Origin: a virus
IMG/VR virus record: IMGVR_UViG_3300047666_001259
Coordinates: 1 to 64,000 of that record
DNA length: 64,000 nt
Reading direction: 5' to 3' (one strand)
The notes below the pieces were generated by a model that saw only the letters and a list, made by a program, of their open reading frames with translations, ran no database searches and had not been told where the DNA came from. Position numbers and translations under genes: made by a program. This document shows positions 2,854 through 34,663 of this stretch, one piece after another (positions within the stretch are counted from its first letter, which is position 1; each line of letters opens with the position of its first letter).

Positions 2854-3147
2854 TTAATCGGAGTAAATTATTTCACTATCACCCTTCCCGCACTTACATT
2901 CCGTACACTTACAGCTCTTGCTAATATTTGGTGGTGGTACAGGTAAAATTGGTTGTGGTGAGTGGTGAGGGGTATCATATAACATCCCTCTTAATGCGCT
3001 AGTTTGGGGTTTAAAAGTTTTTTCTCCCCAAACCGAAACTCCTTCGACATAAACTTTTTCTCTTAACAACACCACAGCTTCTGCTGCGGTGATTTTTCCA
3101 TCTTCGAGTAGCTTTTCTACTACGTCTGCTTTTGTGACTTCTTTCAT
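2854..3147 (-). CDS. Hypothetical protein with Cys-rich C-terminus
   Basis: 97 aa; LLEDGKITAAEAVVLL at the N-terminus, CKCTECKC at the C-terminus. Confidence 0.65.
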   Translation of the reverse strand: MKEVTKADVVEKLLEDGKITAAEAVVLLREKVYVEGVSVWGEKTFKPQTSALRGMLYDTPHHSPQPILPVPPPNISKSCKCTECKCGKGDSEIIYSD

Positions 3148-11984: not shown

Positions 11985-12889
11985 TATCTTCCGTATTTAT
12001 TAGCTAATCTGTTTAGCATCTCGATAATTCTGTGATCAGGGTAAAGGTCGAACTTATCCTTACGGACTGAAGTATGTGACCAAATACCATCTTTCTTGTT
12101 TTTGATAACACTTGGGTCAAAATCAAACCATGAGTAATCAAAACTAGATTGTACATTAATGTTGTAGGTTCTAATTAGGTGATCTAGAAGTAATTCAGTT
12201 GCTGTGATTTGATCTTCGGTAAAAGCTTCAAAATAATGAAATCCCCTGAATTCTCTCTGTAAGGAATAAACTTTTGAAGGGTCAACTGTGGTATTGGAGA
12301 AGTTTCCCGGCCATGCGTAGAATTTATCCCCCTTCTTTTTGAGTGGCCCGTAATTACAGATTTCAATCCCAACTGAAGCTTTATCTAGTTTTCCTTTTGT
12401 TCCCTTTACGCCTAAGTGATAACTCCAATATTTTGGATTAAAACACTCAAATATATTTCCTCCGTATCCGTCAATAACATAAGCGGTGGCGATTCTTGGC
12501 TGATTGCCATCCCAGTAATCAATAACCCCTTTAGCGTTAGCGGAACCAGCCGTAAAGTGTAGGTAAAGTTGATTCTTATCGTGAACTTGCTTGATATACT
12601 GACTACTAGATAGTTTGTGGTCTCTATTTATTTCGAAGTTATACTTTTGATCTGGCAGAGGATTTCTGTTCTCTTTAGAGCTTCTCTTCTGAGCAGCTTT
12701 AAGAGCCTCAAAAGTCTCGTCTCCAATAATCCCATCATTCATTAGACCATATCTTTTCTGAAAAGCCTTAACTGATCTTTGAGTCTTCTTTCCGAAGCTA
12801 CCATCAATAACTAAATCATAGCCCAACATAGACAAAAGCTTTTGTGCTTCAGCTATCTTTTCATTTCTATCGCCTATCTGTAATAACAT
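11984..12889 (-). CDS. Endolysin: PG_binding_1 domain plus N-acetylmuramoyl-L-alanine amidase (Amidase_2)
   Basis: DGSFGKKT..VKAFQ..GL..DGIIG..T; LHFTAG, WSYHLG, SVGIEICN, WSH...KDK.D. Confidence 0.9.
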   Translation of the reverse strand: MLLQIGDRNEKIAEAQKLLSMLGYDLVIDGSFGKKTQRSVKAFQKRYGLMNDGIIGDETFEALKAAQKRSSKENRNPLPDQKYNFEINRDHKLSSSQYIKQVHDKNQLYLHFTAGSANAKGVIDYWDGNQPRIATAYVIDGYGGNIFECFNPKYWSYHLGVKGTKGKLDKASVGIEICNYGPLKKKGDKFYAWPGNFSNTTVDPSKVYSLQREFRGFHYFEAFTEDQITATELLLDHLIRTYNINVQSSFDYSWFDFDPSVIKNKKDGIWSHTSVRKDKFDLYPDHRIIEMLNRLANKYGR

Positions 12890-20034: not shown

Positions 20035-20608
20035 CTTTCACAAATTTTTTCACAATTTTTACAGCTCTCTCTTTTAATTTCCCGTAGTGAGGAGAATTAT
20101 GAGTTAAGAACTTTGTTTCTTTATGGTAGTTCTCTTGTAAATCTATATCGATAATTCTTAATGTATAGAGAGAAATTCCTCGCTTAATCTCAAAGAGGTG
20201 CTTCTTTTCTAAATAGCCATTAATTATTTCTCCTCTTTGATCTGGATTACTCCATTCGATGCCATTTGTTTTTGATTCAATTCTAACAAGGGCTTCCTGA
20301 ACTTGATGATTCCACCACGAATCTCTTTGAGCTTTACTTAGAGCCTTTCTCTTTTTTGATTTAGAAACATGCTTATCATCATCATCTCCTCTCTTTTTTC
20401 TTTCCTCTTCCTCTTTTTCTACCCTCTCTTCCTCTTCTCTAAGAACTATAGCATCTTCCAAAGCTTCCACGCCCTCCTGTAAAGCCTCAAACTCCTCTTC
20501 ATCTAAGTATTCATCTTCAATATCTAAAACCTCCTCCCGCATAAGAATAAGGTCAGCGACACTTAAGCCGTCAAAATTAAAACTTGATGGTGAGTTTTCT
20601 ATTTTCAT
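20027..20608 (-). CDS. Hypothetical acidic/coiled-coil protein
   Basis: 193 aa, coupled to the SbcDC gene. Confidence 0.7.
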   Translation of the reverse strand: MKIENSPSSFNFDGLSVADLILMREEVLDIEDEYLDEEEFEALQEGVEALEDAIVLREEEERVEKEEEERKKRGDDDDKHVSKSKKRKALSKAQRDSWWNHQVQEALVRIESKTNGIEWSNPDQRGEIINGYLEKKHLFEIKRGISLYTLRIIDIDLQENYHKETKFLTHNSPHYGKLKERAVKIVKKFVKDE

Positions 20609-23600
20609 CGAGTTACTAATTGTGTAATCCCAGCATTAGGATTGGTATTCAAGTCTTCTTCAGTAAGCTCTGTTCTATCTTTAAAAGCTTCGAAAATATA
20701 ATCGGCAGCATCTTTGATCTCATCAACGTGAGTAATAACCATCATGTTCTTATATTTCGTCTTTAAATATCTCAAAATACCTACCATCTCAGTTACGGTC
20801 TCTGGGTGCAGCGTGCCAAACCCTTCATCAATTAAAAATATAGAAGGTTTAACCACATAATTTCCTGAGATGTATCTGAAAGCATCTTTGATAGCTAAAG
20901 AAATTAGAAACTTTTGCGCTCCCGATCCACTTCCAGCAACTGGGAGCCTATCAAATTTGTTTTCCATAAAGTAAAAATATTCTTTAATATCACCTTTCTT
21001 ATCAATCTCAAGATCAACCTTATAGTTTGCCATGTGTCCAATAAGACTGTTTACTCTACTGTTCATCAACGGAAGTCTTTTTTTGATAATCATAGAAGGA
21101 ATACCATCTCTTTCGACAGCCTGAAGGTAAATTGAATATATTTTAAAATTCTTATCAGCTTCCTTAATTTTATTCAATACCACTTTACTTGTTTGAATAG
21201 TGTTTTCAAGCACACTAACGTCACCTATCATTCCATTAATTTGGTTGCTAATTGCATGAACAGCTAACTTGTACTGATCAATTGATTCCTCAATATCTGT
21301 AATGTACTTTTCAGTCTCAATATTCTTTTTCTTGTTTTCTTCGTTTTCATCGAAAACATCAAATTGGTTTTGAAAAACAGCTAAAGAATTCTTAAAGTTC
21401 TGTAAATCACCTTCAGAAGTCCTTAAATCTTTGTATTTACGGTCATACAGAGTGTTGTGTTCAATGATACTCTTTGACTTAGCAATCACATCCTTTTCTT
21501 TATTTAAAGAGTCTAATGCCCCCTCAAACTGCTTAATAGATGATATCAATAACGACAGTCTACTTTCTTTTTGATTCAAAAGATTGTTATGATTTTTATG
21601 ATCCTCCGCCTTTTCAATTAATTTCCTTTTCTCGTTAATGATTACATTCTTCTCTCCGATTAATATCTTTGTTGAACTCTCTGCTTTAGGTTTTGGTTCA
21701 GAAGTGGCATTATTACAAGTTGGACAAGGCTTTCCTTGAAATATAATTAAATCATTCTGAAGAGAAATAACTTCCGATTGAACTTCCATTATAACTTTAG
21801 AAGCACCTGAATCATCTATAACCTCTTTCCTTGGGTTCGATTCAATCCAAATTTTTAATTCTCCTTTCTCTGTTTGAGAAGAGTCTAAGAGTGATTGGTT
21901 TTTATCTATTTCAGACGAAACTGAGTCAATTGTCTTTGTTGAATCAAACGGTAATTCTCTTTTTGGATTGATATCGACCCAACCTTGAAGTTCATTCTTA
22001 ATTTTGGTTACACGATCTACCTTTTCAGTAATATCAGAAATCTTTTTTTCAATCTCTTCCTTATTCTCAAATGGAAGAATTTGAACCTTTTCTAATTTAG
22101 ACGTTAAATTGATGATTTTCTTATTTTCATCTTCACGTCTAGTTTCGTTCATTTTCTTTTCCTTCCCTAAAGAATCAAGTGTAATTCTTTTTGCTTTTAA
22201 TTCTTCTTCTTTAGTGGCAATTTCCTGTTCAATTTCTACCGCCTTACCAAGATCACTGTAGCTTTTCTTAAAAACGTTAATTTTCTTTCTGGCGTAAGCG
22301 ACTCTTTGCTTGAAAGGATCAAGTCCATTGTATTTCCAAAACAAAGAATTCTTATCTTGCTGACTTAGGTTGATGTAATCATCCTCCGAACCATGTATGT
22401 GAAGAGAGTTGATGGAAAAATCTTCATAAGAACCAATAGCTTCTTCAATCTGCTTCTTAACTTCTTTTTGCTCAGAAGTACCGCTGTCTGATTTCACTGG
22501 AACCCATTTTTCCTCGATAACCCCTTCCGTATCAACTTCTTTCCATATTTCAAATTTCCTTCTGTAAGAATTTGATCCTTTTTCTTTTTGTTCTATCCTT
22601 CTTGAGATTCTGTGGAGAACCCCATTAATAAGAAGCTCGATTGAAACAAAACCTTTGTTTGATTCTGTGTATAGGTTTACGATTGTGTTGGAGTCCTTGT
22701 TGCCCGGCACGACTTCGAACATTCCCCAAATAATTGTTCTAATAAGGTTTGATTTACCAGAGTAATTTTTTCCAAAGATTCCCAATATTCCTTGGTATCT
22801 TTGAAGGTCAATCGTCAAAGCTTTCTCAGGAAAAGAAAATAGATTTGAAAATGTAATTTTAAGAGGCTCAATATTCGTCCTATTCCGAGAGTCTTTTGTT
22901 TCGTCAATTTCTAATTCAGAATTATCAATGTCTGAAGCCAACTTAATTATATTCTTTTTCTCCTCATCGCTAATATCACCTTCAGTTTGGTCTAGCCATT
23001 CTTCAAGTAAATCAAGAAACAATAAAGACTCCCCCTCTTCAACTTCCTTTCCGTCTAATACATCGATTTCTTCTTTCTCAATTGCTTCAAATGATATATT
23101 GATTTCTTTACATCCGTATTGATTTCTAATCAGATCACGAATATACCTTTCTCTCTCTAGGGAATAATTCTCTTGATAGTCCTCATAGACTATACTGATT
23201 TTTGTTTTCTTTTTATCGTTTGAGAAATTAAGATTTTCAACTCTTTCTTCAATAGACTCTCCACGAGAGATGTTTAATTTAGCAAAACCCCAGTCGTTTA
23301 AAACATATCTTCTTTGGTGGGTAATGTTTTTCTTATTCGACAAATCCCACATCAAATACCCTTTATCGATTGACTCTCCGTAGTTATTTTGAATTAGTGA
23401 CCCACAGTAAGCAATAGTTTCATCCTCACGGAAGGTTTGATACTCATGGATGTCTCCCATCATAACAGCATCAAAATTCTTGAAAGTTTCCATATTGAAT
23501 CCATCATCTATTCTGATCTCGTACCCATTATCTCCAACAGAACCATAAAGAGTTCCGTGCCAAAAAGCAACGTAAGTTTTTCTAGCTTCAGGTGTTTCTA

Positions 23601-24069
23601 ATTTTAGAACTTCATTATCAACACAAGAATAAATCCCATAAACCAAATCTCTTCCTACATCAAAAAAGCCAGAGCTTGGGTAATAGTAGATTGAGTTCTT
23701 CCAGAAATCAACATCATCTTTATTCTCTTCCGTAACAGTGACTGCCTTCTCTCCAGCATCAAGCATTCTGGCTGTCTCTAAAATAGGAGCCATAATATCA
23801 CCTTGATCAAGGTTTTGTAAATTAAGGTCATGGTTTCCTAAAATTACATCAGTTGGTGCAATCTTGGAAAGTTCAGTTAGGAAACTAACCAAAAGGATGG
23901 ATGATTGTGGAGAGGTTTTGATTTTGTGGTGCATTAAATCACCACCAACGTATATTCTATCAGGTTTTTGATTCCTTAGGTCTTCGTAAAATCTTTCAAA
24001 TACATCTCTAAATTCATCATGTCTTGCACCAAATCGTATTTGGATGTCCGCAGTATGAGCTATCTTCAT
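20605..24069 (-). CDS. Fused Mre11/SbcD nuclease - Rad50/SbcC ATPase (gp47-gp46-like)
   Basis: ADIQ, GGDLMH, GNHD, HG, GDIH phosphoesterase motifs; Walker A GKNYSGKS; CPTC zinc hook in the coiled coil; SGAQK signature; IDEGFG Walker B; ITH. Confidence 0.92.
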   Translation of the reverse strand: MKIAHTADIQIRFGARHDEFRDVFERFYEDLRNQKPDRIYVGGDLMHHKIKTSPQSSILLVSFLTELSKIAPTDVILGNHDLNLQNLDQGDIMAPILETARMLDAGEKAVTVTEENKDDVDFWKNSIYYYPSSGFFDVGRDLVYGIYSCVDNEVLKLETPEARKTYVAFWHGTLYGSVGDNGYEIRIDDGFNMETFKNFDAVMMGDIHEYQTFREDETIAYCGSLIQNNYGESIDKGYLMWDLSNKKNITHQRRYVLNDWGFAKLNISRGESIEERVENLNFSNDKKKTKISIVYEDYQENYSLERERYIRDLIRNQYGCKEINISFEAIEKEEIDVLDGKEVEEGESLLFLDLLEEWLDQTEGDISDEEKKNIIKLASDIDNSELEIDETKDSRNRTNIEPLKITFSNLFSFPEKALTIDLQRYQGILGIFGKNYSGKSNLIRTIIWGMFEVVPGNKDSNTIVNLYTESNKGFVSIELLINGVLHRISRRIEQKEKGSNSYRRKFEIWKEVDTEGVIEEKWVPVKSDSGTSEQKEVKKQIEEAIGSYEDFSINSLHIHGSEDDYINLSQQDKNSLFWKYNGLDPFKQRVAYARKKINVFKKSYSDLGKAVEIEQEIATKEEELKAKRITLDSLGKEKKMNETRREDENKKIINLTSKLEKVQILPFENKEEIEKKISDITEKVDRVTKIKNELQGWVDINPKRELPFDSTKTIDSVSSEIDKNQSLLDSSQTEKGELKIWIESNPRKEVIDDSGASKVIMEVQSEVISLQNDLIIFQGKPCPTCNNATSEPKPKAESSTKILIGEKNVIINEKRKLIEKAEDHKNHNNLLNQKESRLSLLISSIKQFEGALDSLNKEKDVIAKSKSIIEHNTLYDRKYKDLRTSEGDLQNFKNSLAVFQNQFDVFDENEENKKKNIETEKYITDIEESIDQYKLAVHAISNQINGMIGDVSVLENTIQTSKVVLNKIKEADKNFKIYSIYLQAVERDGIPSMIIKKRLPLMNSRVNSLIGHMANYKVDLEIDKKGDIKEYFYFMENKFDRLPVAGSGSGAQKFLISLAIKDAFRYISGNYVVKPSIFLIDEGFGTLHPETVTEMVGILRYLKTKYKNMMVITHVDEIKDAADYIFEAFKDRTELTEEDLNTNPNAGITQLVTR

Positions 24070-29038: not shown

Positions 29039-29154
29039 TTCTTAACTTCTTTGATTTATTCTAAATAGAACTCAAAAAAAATAATACCTTTAATTTAAAA
29101 AGTAAAGGGTTTACTTTATTTTTGAGAATTATTTATACCAAAGAACTATTTCTT

Positions 29155-31650
29155 ATGCCATTTGATTTACCAAATACAGCGAGTACATTATCTCCCCATT
29201 TTTCACCGGGAGAAGACCTAAGATACTTTCCAACCACAGATCGTTCGATATCTACCGTTGGTGATTATCGTGTGCAAACTAATTTTGATCCAGAGTCAAT
29301 AGATCGAGTAATTAGAAATCTCAGTTTCGATCAATACGAATCTTTAAACTCAATGAGCATCACAGGAGCCACTTCTGCTGATACCATTAATGTTTTCGTG
29401 CAATCACAAGAACTTAATCTTGATTTTCAAAGACCTGAAAACAACACCTATTTTTCAAGCTTTAAAACAGAGGTGATAAAAGGAATAGCAGAAATAATTT
29501 CAGACTTTCCATACGCTATCTATGTAACTTCAGGCTCTACTAGCGCCAATACTCTTTATGATTTCTCTAAGGTCTATGACTTAAATACAAATGAAATTCA
29601 ATCTACTTTTAAGGTCTCAGCCGATACTATTGTCAACCAAGGAAACGTTTTACTTAATTCTGGGTATTCTTATAACAACAACAGTTTATTTAATAATTTC
29701 AATGATTACGTTGTTCAGTTTAAAAATGGAGAAGACGCAAACACTGGGTCAACTGTTCCAAGATTAACAATCCTAAACTATTCATTCTCAGCTGGAGTTT
29801 ATTTAGAACTCACAGTTAAAGGAGACTTTTTAACAGGTCAAACGTCAGGAACATCATTCTCTGAATTCTATATTGCTCCCTCTCCTAAGATAGTTTATAA
29901 ATTTAAGAAGGATATTACTCCTCTGCAAAATCAACTTTTCTTTAACGGAAAATACAAAATTGCAAACCCACTTCTAAATGATGGCTCTACGATTGAAGTA
30001 ACTTATACTTGGCCGAAGACCATTGATGGATACAACCCTAATACTTACGGAACGGAGTTCGATGTTTGGAAAGATAGCATGCTAGACTTTGCTGAGGACT
30101 TAGATTGTGACAAGACTGGAATTATGGCTCAGACTATGATCCCTGATTCTTATTTCGAATTTGATAGTGATAGTGATATCTACAAAAATGTTACCCAAGC
30201 TCAAGCTCAGGAGTTTGATATCATCAAACAATATATTGATGGTTTAGTTTATGCTCACACAGCAACATATGACGGAACAGAGTCTGTCCCAGACAAGTTC
30301 ATCTTTAAACTATCCCAGTTACTAGGGTTTGACTTATCTCCTCAATTCAATGAGGTAGACCTATTGCGTTATCTTTCGGGAGATGAAGATGGTTTAGATA
30401 ATTCAGGAGCTTATTATAACTTGCAGCTTTGGAGAAAGATTTTAACTAATATTATTTGGCTTTTAAAGAGAAAAGGAACTAGAGAGTCATTGCTTTGGAT
30501 ATTCCAGCTTATCGGTGCGCCAGAGTGCATGATTAGGTTAGATGAGATTGTATATGATATCTCTTCGGCAGCAGCTTCTGGAAATACAGGTACTTTATTA
30601 GAGAATGAATTATCTTTTAAAGTAAAAACAAACGGATATCCAGATTATAATGTTTCTCCACACATTTTTCAAGAAGGTGGAAGTGGTCGTGGAAATGGTA
30701 TGAAGTATATTGATTTCTGGAGACCACAGTTTGATCCAGTTTTGAGATTTGACAACATCAAAACCCAATCTGGAGATACAGTATATTTCGGAACTGAAAA
30801 TATTATAAACTCTAAACAACTATATGCAGCACTTGATCCAGCTCAAGCAATCGAGTGCAACGTACATGAGTGGTATCAATTAACTGGTACAGTTTGGAAC
30901 TACTGTTATTCAGATATTTCTATGTGTGATTGGGATTATCCTTTCCAATGGATTCCTAGTGATCCATATGCAGCAAAACCAACTGGAGCTACGGAACATA
31001 TTTCTGGAATGACATATCAAGAATATATGACATTCTTGTTTGCTAACAATGTTGACCCACAGACTAGAAAAACGAATGATCAAAATCATACAACTTTCTA
31101 TTATCCAGCTCTGAAGAATATTTACTTGAATTATTCTTACTTAAACAATCCACAATCGAACAGGATTACAATGAGTAAGCTTGAAAACTTTATAAAGTTA
31201 ATTGAAAGGAAGTTCTTCAATTATGGAAAACAACTTTTACCAGCCACATCAATTTTGTTGGCTCAAGGAGTGATTTATAGAAACACAGAATTTCATAGAG
31301 AAAGGTTTATCTATAAAGAAGGAGTTAATAAAGGTTCAGAATTTAGAGTAGACGTGTCTCAGCCAGAATCTCTTATCGAAATCATCGAGGTTACCAATGA
31401 GGTAGTCCAAGAGATTGAAGGAAACGTTATTTCGATTGAAGTCTCTAATGAAATTGTTCAAGAAATTGAAGGAAATGTTATCCCTATTGACGTGAGCAAT
31501 GAAATTACGATTGAAATTGAAGGAACAATTAATGGATATAATTTGATTGTAGAGATTAATGATCTTACTGAAGATTCAGAAGTTGTCTCGGAAGTAACTG
31601 CTACTCAATTATTAGAAGACTTATCTAATATCATCTCTGATCCTGAATAA
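29155..31650 (+). CDS. Baseplate wedge protein (P2 gpI/T4 gp7-like)
   Basis: LSQLLGF...WRKIL.NI.WLLKRKGTRESL.....IG; LLPAT; three acidic C-terminal repeats (EVxNEIVQEIEGNVI); TATTTA at 29130-29135. Confidence 0.7.
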   Translation: MPFDLPNTASTLSPHFSPGEDLRYFPTTDRSISTVGDYRVQTNFDPESIDRVIRNLSFDQYESLNSMSITGATSADTINVFVQSQELNLDFQRPENNTYFSSFKTEVIKGIAEIISDFPYAIYVTSGSTSANTLYDFSKVYDLNTNEIQSTFKVSADTIVNQGNVLLNSGYSYNNNSLFNNFNDYVVQFKNGEDANTGSTVPRLTILNYSFSAGVYLELTVKGDFLTGQTSGTSFSEFYIAPSPKIVYKFKKDITPLQNQLFFNGKYKIANPLLNDGSTIEVTYTWPKTIDGYNPNTYGTEFDVWKDSMLDFAEDLDCDKTGIMAQTMIPDSYFEFDSDSDIYKNVTQAQAQEFDIIKQYIDGLVYAHTATYDGTESVPDKFIFKLSQLLGFDLSPQFNEVDLLRYLSGDEDGLDNSGAYYNLQLWRKILTNIIWLLKRKGTRESLLWIFQLIGAPECMIRLDEIVYDISSAAASGNTGTLLENELSFKVKTNGYPDYNVSPHIFQEGGSGRGNGMKYIDFWRPQFDPVLRFDNIKTQSGDTVYFGTENIINSKQLYAALDPAQAIECNVHEWYQLTGTVWNYCYSDISMCDWDYPFQWIPSDPYAAKPTGATEHISGMTYQEYMTFLFANNVDPQTRKTNDQNHTTFYYPALKNIYLNYSYLNNPQSNRITMSKLENFIKLIERKFFNYGKQLLPATSILLAQGVIYRNTEFHRERFIYKEGVNKGSEFRVDVSQPESLIEIIEVTNEVVQEIEGNVISIEVSNEIVQEIEGNVIPIDVSNEITIEIEGTINGYNLIVEINDLTEDSEVVSEVTATQLLEDLSNIISDPE

Positions 31651-31652
31651 AC

Positions 31653-32177
31653 ATGACAAATAAATATTCAATAAAAAAAACAATATATAATTCCATTAGG
31701 AAAATTATATTTGAATCCGAAAGTAATAGTTATTCTTATAAAGTTTACCACTCGTCTAATGAAAAATTTAATCATTTTAAATTAGAAAAAATTACAAATT
31801 TAGGAGGCGACTTGTATGGTAAAGGTTTTTATTTCACTGATAATTTGAATTATTCAGAAAATTTTGGAAAAATAACTTATGAATGCTTAGTAACTTTAAA
31901 AAACCCTCTTAATCTAACTAATTCAAATTCAAAAAATCAACTAACTCAGTTGGTTAATTACATTAATGATATTCCTGAAAAAGACTTAGAATACATAAGT
32001 GGGTCTATTCAGAACAACAGCTTTACAACTGCTTTCAGAAAAATAAGAGATTTCATTTCATTTGAATCACTTCACGAATTGTACGATGGAGTAATTGGGT
32101 GGTCAGAAGAAGGTGGGAGAGAATACATTGTATATAATCCTAGAAACATTAAGATAATAAATTTTACGATCTTATAA
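31653..32177 (+). CDS. ADP-ribosyltransferase-like protein (ART-PolyVal-like)
   Basis: VYHSS...F..F, YGKGFYFTD, V.LKNPL, YDGVI, EYIVYNP..IK. Confidence 0.7.
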   Translation: MTNKYSIKKTIYNSIRKIIFESESNSYSYKVYHSSNEKFNHFKLEKITNLGGDLYGKGFYFTDNLNYSENFGKITYECLVTLKNPLNLTNSNSKNQLTQLVNYINDIPEKDLEYISGSIQNNSFTTAFRKIRDFISFESLHELYDGVIGWSEEGGREYIVYNPRNIKIINFTIL

Positions 32178-32197: not shown

Positions 32198-32383
32198 ATG
32201 GAGCAAGTAGGGCAAGTACAAATATTTAGTCAAACGGACGACCCCGAAACACTACAACGTGAGATGAATGATTGGTTGGTTGATTGTGATGTGACAGTTG
32301 TTCGTGTCCTACAAACCCAATCTGGTAGAATGGATACCACCTTGACTATCACTTTATTTTACGTGAATAATCCCGAAGATTAA
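32198..32383 (+). CDS. Small hypothetical protein; its stop codon abuts the array
   Basis: 61 aa; QIF...LQREMNDWL...V..V.QT...TLFY pattern. Confidence 0.7.
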   Translation: MEQVGQVQIFSQTDDPETLQREMNDWLVDCDVTVVRVLQTQSGRMDTTLTITLFYVNNPED

Positions 32384-32451
32384 CGGTTTGTGTATGTACC
32401 GTTTGAGGTACGAAAATGGAATATAAACAGTGTTATAAAATTAAATTGATT

Positions 32452-32676
32452 ATGGGAATGTTTGATACAGTAATAGTTCCGTGTCCAGAATGTGGAACAA
32501 AAGAAGAATTTCAGAGCAAAAGTGGTGAATGTTTTTTACAAGAAGTAGAATTAAAAGACTGTCCAAGTGATATATTGTATGACGTGAATAGACACTCGCC
32601 ATACACTTGTTGTGATTGCGGTACTTTATTCGAGGTAGACACAAAATCTAAAGAAAGTACTAAAGTAGTGTTGTAG
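32452..32676 (+). CDS. Cassette gene: small Zn-ribbon protein (MGMFD..CPECG..FQSK)
   Basis: CPEC, C..C; in module B1; alternative ATG at 32416 lies inside hairpin A1. Confidence 0.75.
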   Translation: MGMFDTVIVPCPECGTKEEFQSKSGECFLQEVELKDCPSDILYDVNRHSPYTCCDCGTLFEVDTKSKESTKVVL

Positions 32677-32729
32677 ATAACGATGTACCTTTTTAAAAGC
32701 AAAACGGGCGAGTGTAAAATTTGAAAATT

Positions 32730-32882
32730 ATGGATGATAAAACGATAGCTTATTATTTACAGCACAAAGTAGAAGTAAAAGAGAATAGCTTAAAACCTAT
32801 GGATAAACGTCATAAAATACCTAAGCGCATAAAGAAGGAAATAAAAGAACTAAAAGCAATGATTGAACACTTGACGGAATAA
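32730..32882 (+). CDS. Cassette gene: 50-aa basic protein in the loop of hairpin A2
   Basis: Not in the track; MDDKTIAYYLQHKVEVKENSLKPMDKRHKIPKRIKKEIKELKAMIEHLTE. Confidence 0.65.
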   Translation: MDDKTIAYYLQHKVEVKENSLKPMDKRHKIPKRIKKEIKELKAMIEHLTE

Positions 32883-33038
32883 TTTTTTGTTTTTATACAT
32901 TGTTGTGCTTAACGAAGTGGTGTTTTAATGAAGCACAACGGTTGCAAATATGAGAAGTAAATCTTTTCATTAAAAAATAGACAAAGTAAGATTTATTTCT
33001 TATATTTAGTATCAAAAATTTTATACAAATTAAAAAAT

Positions 33039-33260
33039 ATGGAAAATACATTTGAACCAAGAAAATCCATCTCCGAAAGATATAGTTTGGAGAATATGTC
33101 TAAACAAAGAGGAATGTCTATTGATGACTATAAGTTAGAAATAGACAAACAACTCAAAATGAAACAGGATATTATTGATAAACAACTATCAAAAGGATGG
33201 ACACAGGAACAATCTGAAACTCACGCTATGAGGTGTTTGTATATTGATGGATTTTCTTGA
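33039..33260 (+). CDS. Cassette gene: hypothetical protein
   Basis: 73 aa; flanked by a perfect 15-bp inverted repeat at 33010-33024 / 33285-33299. Confidence 0.7.
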   Translation: MENTFEPRKSISERYSLENMSKQRGMSIDDYKLEIDKQLKMKQDIIDKQLSKGWTQEQSETHAMRCLYIDGFS

Positions 33261-33346
33261 CCGACATTCAAAGATTAAGAACTCATAAAATTTTTGATAT
33301 TGAATATAACGCTGAGTATATGAAACGTAAATTTTAAACAGACAAA

Positions 33347-33586
33347 ATGAATAAAACAGGATATTATATATTAGGAATACTGAGCGGTTTGACCCTATAC
33401 AAACTAATTTATGTTTTATATACATTGTTGTTGTTAGTTGATTTTACGCCTTTATACCCTTACTTAATAGATATAAACTATTATTGCGAAAAGTATACAA
33501 CTAAAAATATTGCTGAAATAGGTGCAATACTTTTGATAGTAATACCAATAGCAATATTTGTGATTAAAGAGCGCAGACTTAAGTAA
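33347..33586 (+). CDS. Cassette gene: membrane protein spanning the A4/B4 junction
   Basis: Starts in the A4 loop, reads through GTT 33427, stops in the B4 terminal repeat. Confidence 0.65.
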   Translation: MNKTGYYILGILSGLTLYKLIYVLYTLLLLVDFTPLYPYLIDINYYCEKYTTKNIAEIGAILLIVIPIAIFVIKERRLK

Positions 33587-33688
33587 AATCTATTAACTAC
33601 AATGACTACTGTATGTGGCGTAGCTTTTCGCTATGACATATAAAGTTTGTTAGCATTAGTACGGATTAATAACTAAAAACTTAATAAG

Positions 33689-33880
33689 ATGACAAAAAGA
33701 GAAAGATTAAAAGAGTGGATTAAAACTCTAAACGAAGAACAAAAAGATACTGTGATACTTGAACTTACAGACTTTGCAATAGATGCCGAGTATGTTGGTT
33801 TTTATGATACTACGAAAGTACCATATTATGATTGTACTGGAGAAAATCTAGATGGAACTGAAAGCGATGATGAAGATTAG
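33689..33880 (+). CDS. Cassette gene: hypothetical protein
   Basis: 63 aa filling module B5. Confidence 0.7.
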   Translation: MTKRERLKEWIKTLNEEQKDTVILELTDFAIDAEYVGFYDTTKVPYYDCTGENLDGTESDDED

Positions 33881-33931
33881 TATTACTGCTAACGTATAGT
33901 AATATGATTAGTGCGGATTAATAACAAGAAA

Positions 33932-34099
33932 ATGGCAAAGACACGAGAACAAAAAAGAATTGAAAATGCGGATAAAGTTTGTAGAGAACTTAGATACCAA
34001 ATAGTAGAATATGGACTAATAGGCGATTGGGATGCAATTAATAAGCATTTTAATTCTTGGATGAATAATGCTAAAAAATCTAAATACGAAAGACCTTAG
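33932..34099 (+). CDS. Cassette gene: hypothetical protein
   Basis: Start MAKTREQ after an A-rich leader; in module A6. Confidence 0.7.
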   Translation: MAKTREQKRIENADKVCRELRYQIVEYGLIGDWDAINKHFNSWMNNAKKSKYERP

Positions 34100-34136
34100 C
34101 ATTAGTACGGATTATTAACAGATAAATTATATAAAA

Positions 34137-34322
34137 ATGGAAGGAATAAAAGTAACATTAGTGCCAAATCAAGAAACAGACTACCAAGCGTTTAGATTTG
34201 ATGAATTAGGTATTACTTATTTTGAATGGTCAAAAATGAGTGAAGATGATAAAAGAATCTTGGTGTTAGAAAACATTATGGAAAATATATGCTCTCACGT
34301 TGACTCGATGGATGAGTATTAA
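34137..34322 (+). CDS. Cassette gene: hypothetical protein
   Basis: 61 aa filling module B6; stop inside the terminal repeat. Confidence 0.7.
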   Translation: MEGIKVTLVPNQETDYQAFRFDELGITYFEWSKMSEDDKRILVLENIMENICSHVDSMDEY

Positions 34323-34383
34323 TGCTAACGGATATGGTTAAGGTTAGTTGCGGGTAGAATATTAATGAATTAAATAAACAAAA

Positions 34384-34584
34384 ATGAAAGCAGATTTAGA
34401 ACAGTTGGAAAAAATGCAAGAAGACTTATTTAGGCAACAATGTGATTTAGATATACAGAAAGCAATGGTAAAACACTTTATAAAAAAGAAAGAAGACGAG
34501 CTATTAACTTTAACCGATGTTGTGGACAGTTTGCCAAGTGATAGACCTAAATTAAGACCATCTTACATTGGCGATAAAGACTAA
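34384..34584 (+). CDS. Cassette gene spanning the A7/B7 junction
   Basis: The right arm of A7 is translated as LLTLTDVV; GTT 34519 is a Val codon. Confidence 0.65.
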   Translation: MKADLEQLEKMQEDLFRQQCDLDIQKAMVKHFIKKKEDELLTLTDVVDSLPSDRPKLRPSYIGDKD

Positions 34585-34663
34585 AAAAAATAAAACAATA
34601 CGGTGTAATTGTCTACAACACCGAAATAAACTCTTGTGCGTAGCATAGAGTTTATTGAATGTT

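Follow-up and report, generated by a model that had tools for sequence, protein, structure and literature searches.

Hairpins with fixed G.T pairs in a phage small-gene array as probable folded recombination sites of an integron-like cassette system

The classic example of recombination between sites on folded single-stranded DNA (ssDNA) comes from integrons: the bottom strand of a cassette site (attC) folds and is cut at AA/C on its 5' arm, and the choice of strand is credited to extrahelical bases and to a helix specific to the integrase IntI. The bottom-strand preference of attC recombination has been described (PMC6393395, PMC5027507). Here, we analyzed the first 64,000 nucleotides (the window) of the IMG/VR virus contig IMGVR_UViG_3300047666_001259, in which an array of small plus-strand genes is interspersed with hairpins. 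A sequence-only reading had placed these hairpins at 32390-34656, a range that opens exactly with the left arm of the first site and closes with the right arm of the final one, and had taken them for structures selected as folded plus strand, either in a reversed-polarity ssDNA recombination system or in mRNA. We propose that they probably serve as folded ssDNA sites at which the gene cassettes of an integron-like system recombine. This system is common among Bacteroidota phages and also occurs on Chryseolinea chromosomes, where the genes run the opposite way.

A Xer-type recombinase also acts on a folded single strand in CTX-phi, where attP(+) mimics a core site with a mismatched central region for XerCD, a single strand is exchanged and the junction is resolved by replication. 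That system differs in that a whole ssDNA phage genome integrates at dif via host enzymes and that there are no cassette arrays. In T4-type phages, promoter(early)-stem-loop (PeSL) modules resemble our hairpins in that they are intergenic, flank small genes in hyperplastic regions and recur across contexts; PeSLs are promoter-plus-terminator motifs exchanged by homologous recombination (PMC2839356, PMC4122927), whereas no terminator-like sites were found in the window, and the family described here has complementary ends that are specific to each gene, a sharp boundary at AAC and, in related phages, a tyrosine recombinase linked to the arrays. The hairpins of IS200/IS605 and REP/RAYT elements differ in their enzyme, as the one linked to our sites is a tyrosine recombinase and PF01797 has no match in the contig. 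A cis-acting mRNA family of the Rfam kind differs in that our sites are antisense to open reading frames (ORFs) in Chryseolinea and match no Rfam family.

Closest to our locus, Qi et al. (2023; PMC9892861) reported clusters of attC sites lacking integrases (CALINs) in virulent phages, and treated the only two sites that they found in Polaribacter phage P12002L as ordinary attC, predicted to be divergent; attC1 of P12002L gave no verified IntI1 recombinants and attC2 recombined. Their paper describes no fixed G.T pairs, polarity or dedicated recombinase, and in the literature that we searched we found no description of the site family, the G.T code, the recombinase or the polarity.

A site family with a covarying stem

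The sites share a layout of (T)AAC, five to six unpaired nucleotides, an arm usually starting GTATATG, a loop, an arm ending ATATAC, two to three nucleotides and GTT. In its complete form, read on the coding strand, a site consists of AAT-x'7-AAC, 5-6 nt, a stem of 17-20 bp, a loop, 2-3 nt and GTT-x7-GT(T/A), where the loop varies from 3 to ~150 nt and may hold the start of a gene. A search pattern for this layout, which left open the bases facing G7 and G12 and also the other variable bases of the stem, matched at least 119 IMG/VR contigs, and nearly all matches were true hairpins with six pairs, a wobble, four pairs, a wobble and seven pairs. Overall, the phage contigs that carry the family number in the hundreds.

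An alignment of 35 representatives folded with RNAalifold gave a 17-bp stem with compensatory changes at nine pairs; all 35 have G.U at position 12, and 32 of 35 also at position 7. The covariance model built from it and used for cmsearch found six matches in the window, all on the plus strand and inside the array, within 2.3 kb; in the contig as a whole it matched only in two arrays and nowhere else. Across all loci it recovered 208 sites in 100 loci, with arrays of uniform orientation. Among 145 distinct sites, 98.8% of stem cells were paired (74% in shuffles), 660 cells were compensatory (doubly changed), and covariation maintained pairing at 14 of the 17 stem pairs. Most stems aligned without gaps, and some types had one bulged T (the L009 type).

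Pattern matches in metagenome-assembled bins of Patescibacteria, archaea and Firmicutes were set aside, as they mostly failed the model or lay on short, possibly mis-binned phage contigs. A contig from a single amplified genome of Patescibacteria (L222, 3606-5888) holds three exact pattern matches ~800-1400 nt apart that fall short of E <= 1e-5 with the covariance model, and these may represent a diverged relative or a different repeat.

Fixed G.T pairs and the choice of strand

Wobble pairs were counted in a pooled set of 220 distinct sites (113 sequence clusters) from other phage contigs, one part of which was collected by pattern and the other via the recombinase, regardless of site sequence. 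Position 12 was G.T in 218 of the 220, and position 7 in 168, with A-T in 27 and G-C in 23. A third fixed G.T lies in the outer stem, where GTT-x7-GTT faces AAT-x'7-AAC. Most wobbles are position-specific, fixed features and not tolerated drift. A mismatch that is fixed shows the same conservation whichever strand is read and so does not reveal the strand by itself; the strand call rests on the non-fixed positions, the folding energies and the mapping of the exchange point.

At the other stem positions of the 220 sites there were 34 G.T/T.G against 11 A.C/C.A (p = 0.0008), and 31 against 11 when each non-fixed position was counted once per cluster (p = 0.003). G.T and A.C are not equally frequent in this larger set, in keeping with the wobble bias that had been claimed from the window alone. 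Folding energies also favored the plus (coding) strand, with RNA parameters in 142 of 145 sites (-29.5 versus -22.3 kcal/mol) and with DNA parameters in 141 of 145 (-13.4 versus -10.7 kcal/mol). Taken with the near-complete pairing and the compensatory cells, this asymmetry bears out the earlier suggestion that the hairpins are under selection as a folded plus strand rather than as double-stranded palindromes.

Cassette ends and the point of exchange

In 116 of 124 cases, phage sites pointed the same way as the ORFs on either side; the TAA of TAAC often served as the stop codon of the preceding ORF, and the next ATG followed GTT at a median of 32 nt. For 60 of 75 sites, the reverse complement of the 7 nt after GTT (x) recurred, followed by AAC, at most 1.6 kb downstream (median 256 nt), whereas controls for this x'-AAC partner gave 10 of 75 and 8 of 75. 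Adjacent sites were complementary at 7 of 8 positions in ~20 of 48 pairs. Each gene is thus bracketed by GTT-x ... x'-AAC.

The same stem-loop type (at least 85% identity) was found in unrelated contexts, allowing the point of exchange to be mapped in 193 pairs of sites sharing a stem-loop type:

Right spacer: identical in 70% of pairs (background 9%)
Left spacer: identical in 47% of pairs (background 3.7%)
Right flank x: identical in 30% of pairs (background 0.9%)
Left flank x': identical in 2% of pairs (background 0.6%)

Since identity is lost between x' and the left spacer, the break falls at the AAC that is 5' on the G.T strand, and exchange appears to have taken place at or beside it. BLAST among all loci found no clean presence or absence of a single cassette between near-identical contigs, so the crossover is placed in or next to the invariant AAC and not to the base. 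With the geometry of the integron cut, a break at the 5' AAC would make the coding strand the exchanged strand here.

We considered whether the bottom (noncoding) strand might instead be the active one, as in integrons, with the fixed A.C mismatches serving as recognition marks in the manner of the extrahelical bases of attC. The near-invariance of position 12 suits recognition over tolerance, and the two fixed positions stand 5 bp apart. This reading is nonetheless unlikely: the non-fixed positions favor G.T by 34 to 11, the bottom strand folds worse in 141 to 142 of 145 sites, exchange maps to the AAC that is 5' on the coding strand, and position 7 is G-C or A-T in 50 of 220 sites, so the mismatch is dispensable there. 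The arm-then-spacer cleavage rule of tyrosine recombinases would likewise make the coding strand the cut strand.

A linked Xer-like recombinase

A tyrosine recombinase was encoded by 8 of 25 array-bearing records, and in the strong cases its gene lay just 3' of the array on the same strand (seven of seven records). In the reverse test, 80 loci were fetched by recombinase protein alone: all 105 model sites in them lay on the recombinase strand, 104 of them upstream of the gene, and, as we read the tables, sites were present for 30 of the 35 close homologues whose upstream flank reached 2 kb or more. Polaribacter phage P12002S has no recombinase.

The enzyme of the phages is 268-285 aa long, with Phage_int_SAM_4 and Phage_integrase domains, and is closest to XerA/XerD. 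On the IntI model TIGR02249, phage enzymes scored 151-156 bits and the Chryseolinea enzyme 192 bits, where the cut-off is 265, and the match fell into two separate parts. The best solved relative was XerA (4a8e), and IntI4 (2a3v) aligned over residues 21-180 only. Judged by profile scores, length and structure matches, the recombinase gave no sign of an IntI-type integrase with the I2 insertion.

In related phages, a conserved AAC-TATnnTATATA closes the arrays, ~45 nt ahead of the start codon of the recombinase gene, and this TAAC-TATnnTATATA docking sequence may be the equivalent of attI. In 12 loci (L133...L184, 7760-8010; 250 nt upstream of the recombinase start), where it reads x'-TAAC-TATnnTATATA, conservation starts exactly at TAAC.

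Arrays on Chryseolinea chromosomes

The site family also forms arrays at least 20 kb long on Chryseolinea chromosomes, adjoining a recombinase 43% identical to that of the phages, and G12.T was kept in the nine sites inspected. The cassette ORFs fit between the sites and lie on the strand opposite to the G.T strand: in one genome ORFs of at least 70 codons favor the opposite strand by 29 to 12, and a second genome mirrors this. What the G.T strand follows is therefore the site and the recombinase end of the array rather than transcription, which disfavors an mRNA role as the reason for the conserved G.T. By the same comparison, the phage arrays are reversed relative both to integrons and to their own bacterial relatives. 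Two Chryseolinea loci, L344 (G024:C26:168000-187999) and L343 (G025:C14:110000-129999), each have 10-20+ model matches abutting a 423-aa Xer-like recombinase.

Of the two options offered by the sequence-only reading, reversed-polarity ssDNA recombination is thus supported by the cassette ends, the exchange at the 5' AAC, the recombinase and Chryseolinea, and mRNA structure is disfavored by the antisense ORFs of Chryseolinea. Under the latter option the hairpins would act in processing, stability or translation control between cistrons, like the RNase III sites of T7, with G.U selected on the transcript. The phage data are in part what it would predict, given the co-orientation of sites and genes, the stop codons overlapping TAAC, the short distance from GTT to the next ATG, the several ORFs that start in a loop or right arm (W1, W4 and W7, listed below) and the larger energy gap under RNA parameters. 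It is nevertheless improbable, because the same G.T strand is antisense to the Chryseolinea cassette ORFs, the sites are confined to small-ORF arrays and absent from other intergenic regions, they are tied to a tyrosine recombinase, the genes are bracketed by complementary ends, and neither terminator-like sites nor an Rfam family were found. Our own first reading, of mRNA hairpins or PeSL-like modules, was dropped on the cassette-end, exchange-point, recombinase and Chryseolinea results. The sites may have a secondary RNA role in phages.

Alternatively, the sites might work as double-stranded DNA, either a dif-like Xer core or inverted repeats for homologous shuffling in the manner of the PeSLs of T4-type phages, the hairpin being incidental. 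The recombinase is indeed Xer-like and appears to be without the insertion on which ssDNA recombination by IntI is held to depend (PMC7790495), and one hairpin type recurs in unrelated contexts, as PeSLs do (PMC2839356). Covariation at 14 of 17 pairs is not required of a duplex binding site, however, strand asymmetry is meaningless in a duplex, and homologous exchange would not yield gene-specific x/x' ends or a sharp AAC boundary, making this explanation very improbable.

The array in the window

In the window, the probable recombination sites and their cassettes are arranged as follows, where WC denotes Watson-Crick pairs, bits are cmsearch scores and all features are on the plus strand.

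32381..32434 (+): site W1; TAAC, spacer, stem 32390-32404 / 32414-32428 with G.T at 7 and 12, GTT 32432-32434; 34.9 bits, matched on the + strand only; the TAA of TAAC is the stop of ORF 32198-32383
32416-32676 (+): ORF with its ATG within the right arm of W1, reading through the remaining arm and GTT
32893..32939 (+): right half-site (TTATAC att GTT), then a gene-less cassette GTTGTGCTT ... AAGCACAAC
32937..33012 (+): site W3; AAC, ggttgc, stem 32946-32965 / 32988-33007 (20 bp, G.T at 7 and 12)
33000..33310 (+): cassette with ORF 33039-33260, ending at AAC 33308-33310
33308..33429 (+): site W4; AAC, gctga, stem 33316-33333 / 33406-33423 (G.T at 7 and 12), att, GTT
33601..33662 (+): site W5; AAT instead of AAC, gactac, stem 33612-33624 / 33630-33642 (two G.T, one G.A); 27.9 bits
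33649..33893 (+): cassette with ORF 33689-33880, ends GTTAGCATTAGTAC / GTATTACTGCTAAC (12 WC, one G.T, one other)
33891..33931 (+): decayed site; AAC without hairpin, then the shared leader TAGTGCGGATTAATAAC; read from the sequence, no cmsearch match
34066..34108 (+): decayed site; x' TAATGCT + AAA / (C)TT + x AGCATTA form a 9-bp hairpin, 34066-34074 / 34096-34104
34095..34329 (+): cassette with ORF 34137-34322, ends 34095-34108 / 34316-34329 (12 WC, one G.T, one other)
34327..34531 (+): site W7; AAC, ggatat, stem 34336-34351 / 34500-34515 (G.T at 7 and 12, one T.T), gat
34519..34619 (+): cassette-end stem GTTGTGGACAGTT / AATTGTCTACAAC (11 WC, two G.T)
34617..34663 (+): site W6, the final site of the array; AAC, accga, stem 34625-34639 / 34643-34656, gaat, GTT 34661-34663

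Complementary ends bracket four cassettes with genes (33039, 33689, 34137, 34384) as well as the gene-less unit 32902-32939, which forms a 9-bp perfect stem with a 20-nt loop; the half-site before it has a weak cmsearch match (32815-32908, 18.8 bits). The ends are longest around ORF 33039-33260, with 25 complementary nucleotides (33000-33024 / 33285-33309; 23 WC, one G.T, one T.G). Site W4 scored 46.8 bits (32 by symmetric dynamic programming), and its 72-nt loop contains the start of ORF 33347-33586, which reads through the right arm, GTT and x. Similarly, the 148-nt loop of W7 contains the start of ORF 34384-34584, which again reads through the right arm, GTT (34519-34521) and x (GTGGACA, followed by GTT). 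On the right side of W5, GTT 33649-33651 is followed by x = AGCATTA and then GTAC, and the second decayed site is read through by ORF 33932-34099. The units labeled B in the sequence-only reading apparently correspond to the three cassettes that share x = AGCATTA and whose hairpins have decayed. W6 is a weak match (12.7 bits) and adjoins convergent minus-strand genes.

Counted with explicit coordinates, the six hairpin stems and five cassette-end stems of the window hold 148 Watson-Crick pairs, 15 G.T and one T.G, no A.C or C.A, and seven other mismatches. These 16 wobbles in real sites agree with the earlier manual tally of about 18 positions where a left-arm G faces a right-arm T and none with A.C, for which the example given, gtatatGaaacGtaaatt / aattTatgttTtatatac, is site W4. 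A stem scan that scored G.T and A.C alike, so that detection favors neither, was compared with block shuffles that keep local composition: it gave 18 wobbles against 7 A.C in array 1 and 17 against 4 in array 2, whereas in composition-matched shuffles the ratio was ~1:1 and about half of the symmetric-scan stems are expected by chance. Its six best stems (score at least 12.5) held 10 G.T and one A.C. The absence of A.C therefore holds for the real sites, not for every inverted repeat of the region. That the bias is an artefact of composition or of the choice of arms is a negligible prospect, for although the arms were first paired by hand allowing G.T and the plus strand is G- and A-rich, symmetric scoring put shuffles at ~1:1 and the bias holds in the 220 sites of other genomes, collected without reference to the wobble partner.

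Three ORF starts (32416, 33347, 34384) lie within W1, W4 and W7, where site and coding sequence overlap. In W3, AGT stands where the right-hand GTT is expected; the stretch 32926-33007 (82 nt) is 95% identical to positions 3001-3082 of locus L001 in LR756500.1, a 462-kb phage otherwise unmatched, and the match stops at the right arm, with GTTGTT in LR756500.1 and AGTATC in the window. The left part of W7 is 83% identical to Polaribacter phage P12002S. A leader motif, TAGTRCGGATTAWTAAC, follows x in three consecutive cassettes (33657-33673, 33909-33925, 34103-34119), and GT(A/G)CGG plus A/T-rich leaders follow x in many other phages too.

Proposed mechanism and points that weigh against it

We propose that the coding strand, when single-stranded, would fold, that the recombinase would bind the outer (R) and inner (L) stems and that it would cut in or beside the AAC on the 5' arm, much as IntI does on the bottom strand of attC. 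Cassettes would leave as circles with x' and x paired and re-enter at another AAC, and the junction would be resolved by replication. With the fixed G.T pairs, only the coding strand would form a continuous helix, as its complement would have A.C breaks, and the G.T pairs may thereby set the choice of strand and the orientation of cassettes, as extrahelical bases do in attC. Phage genes would be sense to the folding strand, so that the hairpin precedes its gene. For the sites of this contig to be active, the enzyme would have to be encoded in the 69% of the genome that the contig lacks or be supplied in trans. Beyond the sites themselves, we lean toward the view that Bacteroidota and their phages share a gene-capture system that is widespread and separate from integrons, in which a short, insertion-less Xer-like recombinase would act on ssDNA with a G.T strand code and in which, in phages, the cassette genes have been turned round so that the hairpin leads the gene and can supply its start.

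Several observations count against folded recombination sites of this kind. The recombinase gene is absent from the 106-kb contig that carries two arrays, and 7 of 11 complete array-bearing phage records have none. The own outer stem of an array site amounts to AAC/GTT plus chance pairs, and, as no more than 30% of pairs keep x together with the hairpin, some exchange may also have occurred on the GTT side. As for the strand, the counts at positions 7 and 12 are the strongest but alone do not name it; the covariance model used to gather and align the sites has a mild preference for G.U over A.C; the sites are related sequences, so the p-values are approximate; and the energy gap under DNA parameters averages a small 2.65 kcal/mol, with no plus-strand advantage for W1 and W6.

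Relation to integrons and to phages P12002L and P12002S

The cassette logic closely resembles that of integrons. Both have small same-direction cassette arrays with sites closed by AAC...GTT and built of an R stem, an unpaired spacer, an L stem and a variable loop of ~55-130 nt. In both, the site often contains a stop codon, the two ends of a cassette are complementary (core and inverse core in integrons), one site type is common to unrelated genes, and a recombinase of the Xer/IntI clade goes with a docking site at the array end toward which the folding strand runs 5' to 3'. They differ in that the recombinase (268-285 aa in phages) scores 151-192 bits on the IntI model, under its cut-off of 265; that the strand appears to be marked here by fixed G.T and in integrons by extrahelical bases; that the outer stem of the circular form is 13 bp here and 7 there; that phage genes are sense to the folding strand, the hairpin preceding the gene and perhaps containing its start; and that the phage recombinase gene is co-directional with the cassettes and downstream of them. 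Bottom-strand folding, as in integrons, is not found in the phages and is found in the Chryseolinea relatives; a recombinase and primary site adjoining the array are likewise not found in the contig and are found in related phage loci.

With at least two close sites (six matches in 2.3 kb) and no PF00589 in 106 kb, the array agrees with the definition of a CALIN, as judged by our family model and not by the attC model of IntegronFinder. P12002L_attC1 (TGCTAAC ggctac GGCTAAACGG ... CCGTTTTAGCC att GTTAGGC) is a short member of the family. P12002L_attC2, the one phage site from this lineage that Qi et al. showed to recombine with IntI1, was rejected as a member by the covariance model; lying outside the family, it says nothing on polarity. 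P12002S, the sister of P12002L, has eight model matches at E < 0.05, seven of them on the early-gene strand, and both phages are without an annotated integrase, like the contig studied here.

The same logic would thus run here on a plain Xer-like enzyme with a different strand mark, the fixed G.T. The occurrence of both gene orientations, canonical in Chryseolinea and reversed in phages, amounts to a natural experiment that bears on how strand choice is encoded and on the origin of ssDNA recombination from Xer enzymes. It also bears on how phages stock and swap small accessory genes, possibly including anti-defence genes. Standard integron finders probably miss or mis-orient such arrays, as with the two sites predicted to be divergent by Qi et al.

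Genomic context of the array

The window covers the opening 64 kb of one contig of 105,908 bp, a phage genome estimated by CheckV as ~31% complete, with a G+C content of ~35% and genes including a baseplate wedge protein, an SbcC-like nuclease and a helicase. Neither PF00589 (tyrosine recombinase) nor PF01797 (Y1/HUH transposase) had a match in the 106-kb contig. The array occupies a plus-strand island at 32.2-34.7 kb with ~10 ORFs of 50-86 codons, flanked on one side by an ART-PolyVal ADP-ribosyltransferase gene and on the other by convergent minus-strand genes, and a second small-ORF island (array 2) lies at 80.1-84.2 kb of the contig. A scan of the window for promoters and terminators returned no terminator-like sites and promoter-like sites at chance level, and Rfam gave no family match for the window or for ten of the best loci. 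A weak match to the Rfam RT-17 RNA (25 bits, E = 0.015, cut-off 40.4) lies at 12566-12661 (-) of locus L029, just downstream of a site.

Directly upstream of the array and on the same strand (29122-32177), an 842-aa ORF with no Pfam or PHROG match is followed by the 174-aa ART-PolyVal ADP-ribosyltransferase. Farther upstream, at 20605-24069, this phage rich in long hairpin-forming sites encodes an SbcC-like subunit of a palindrome-specific nuclease.

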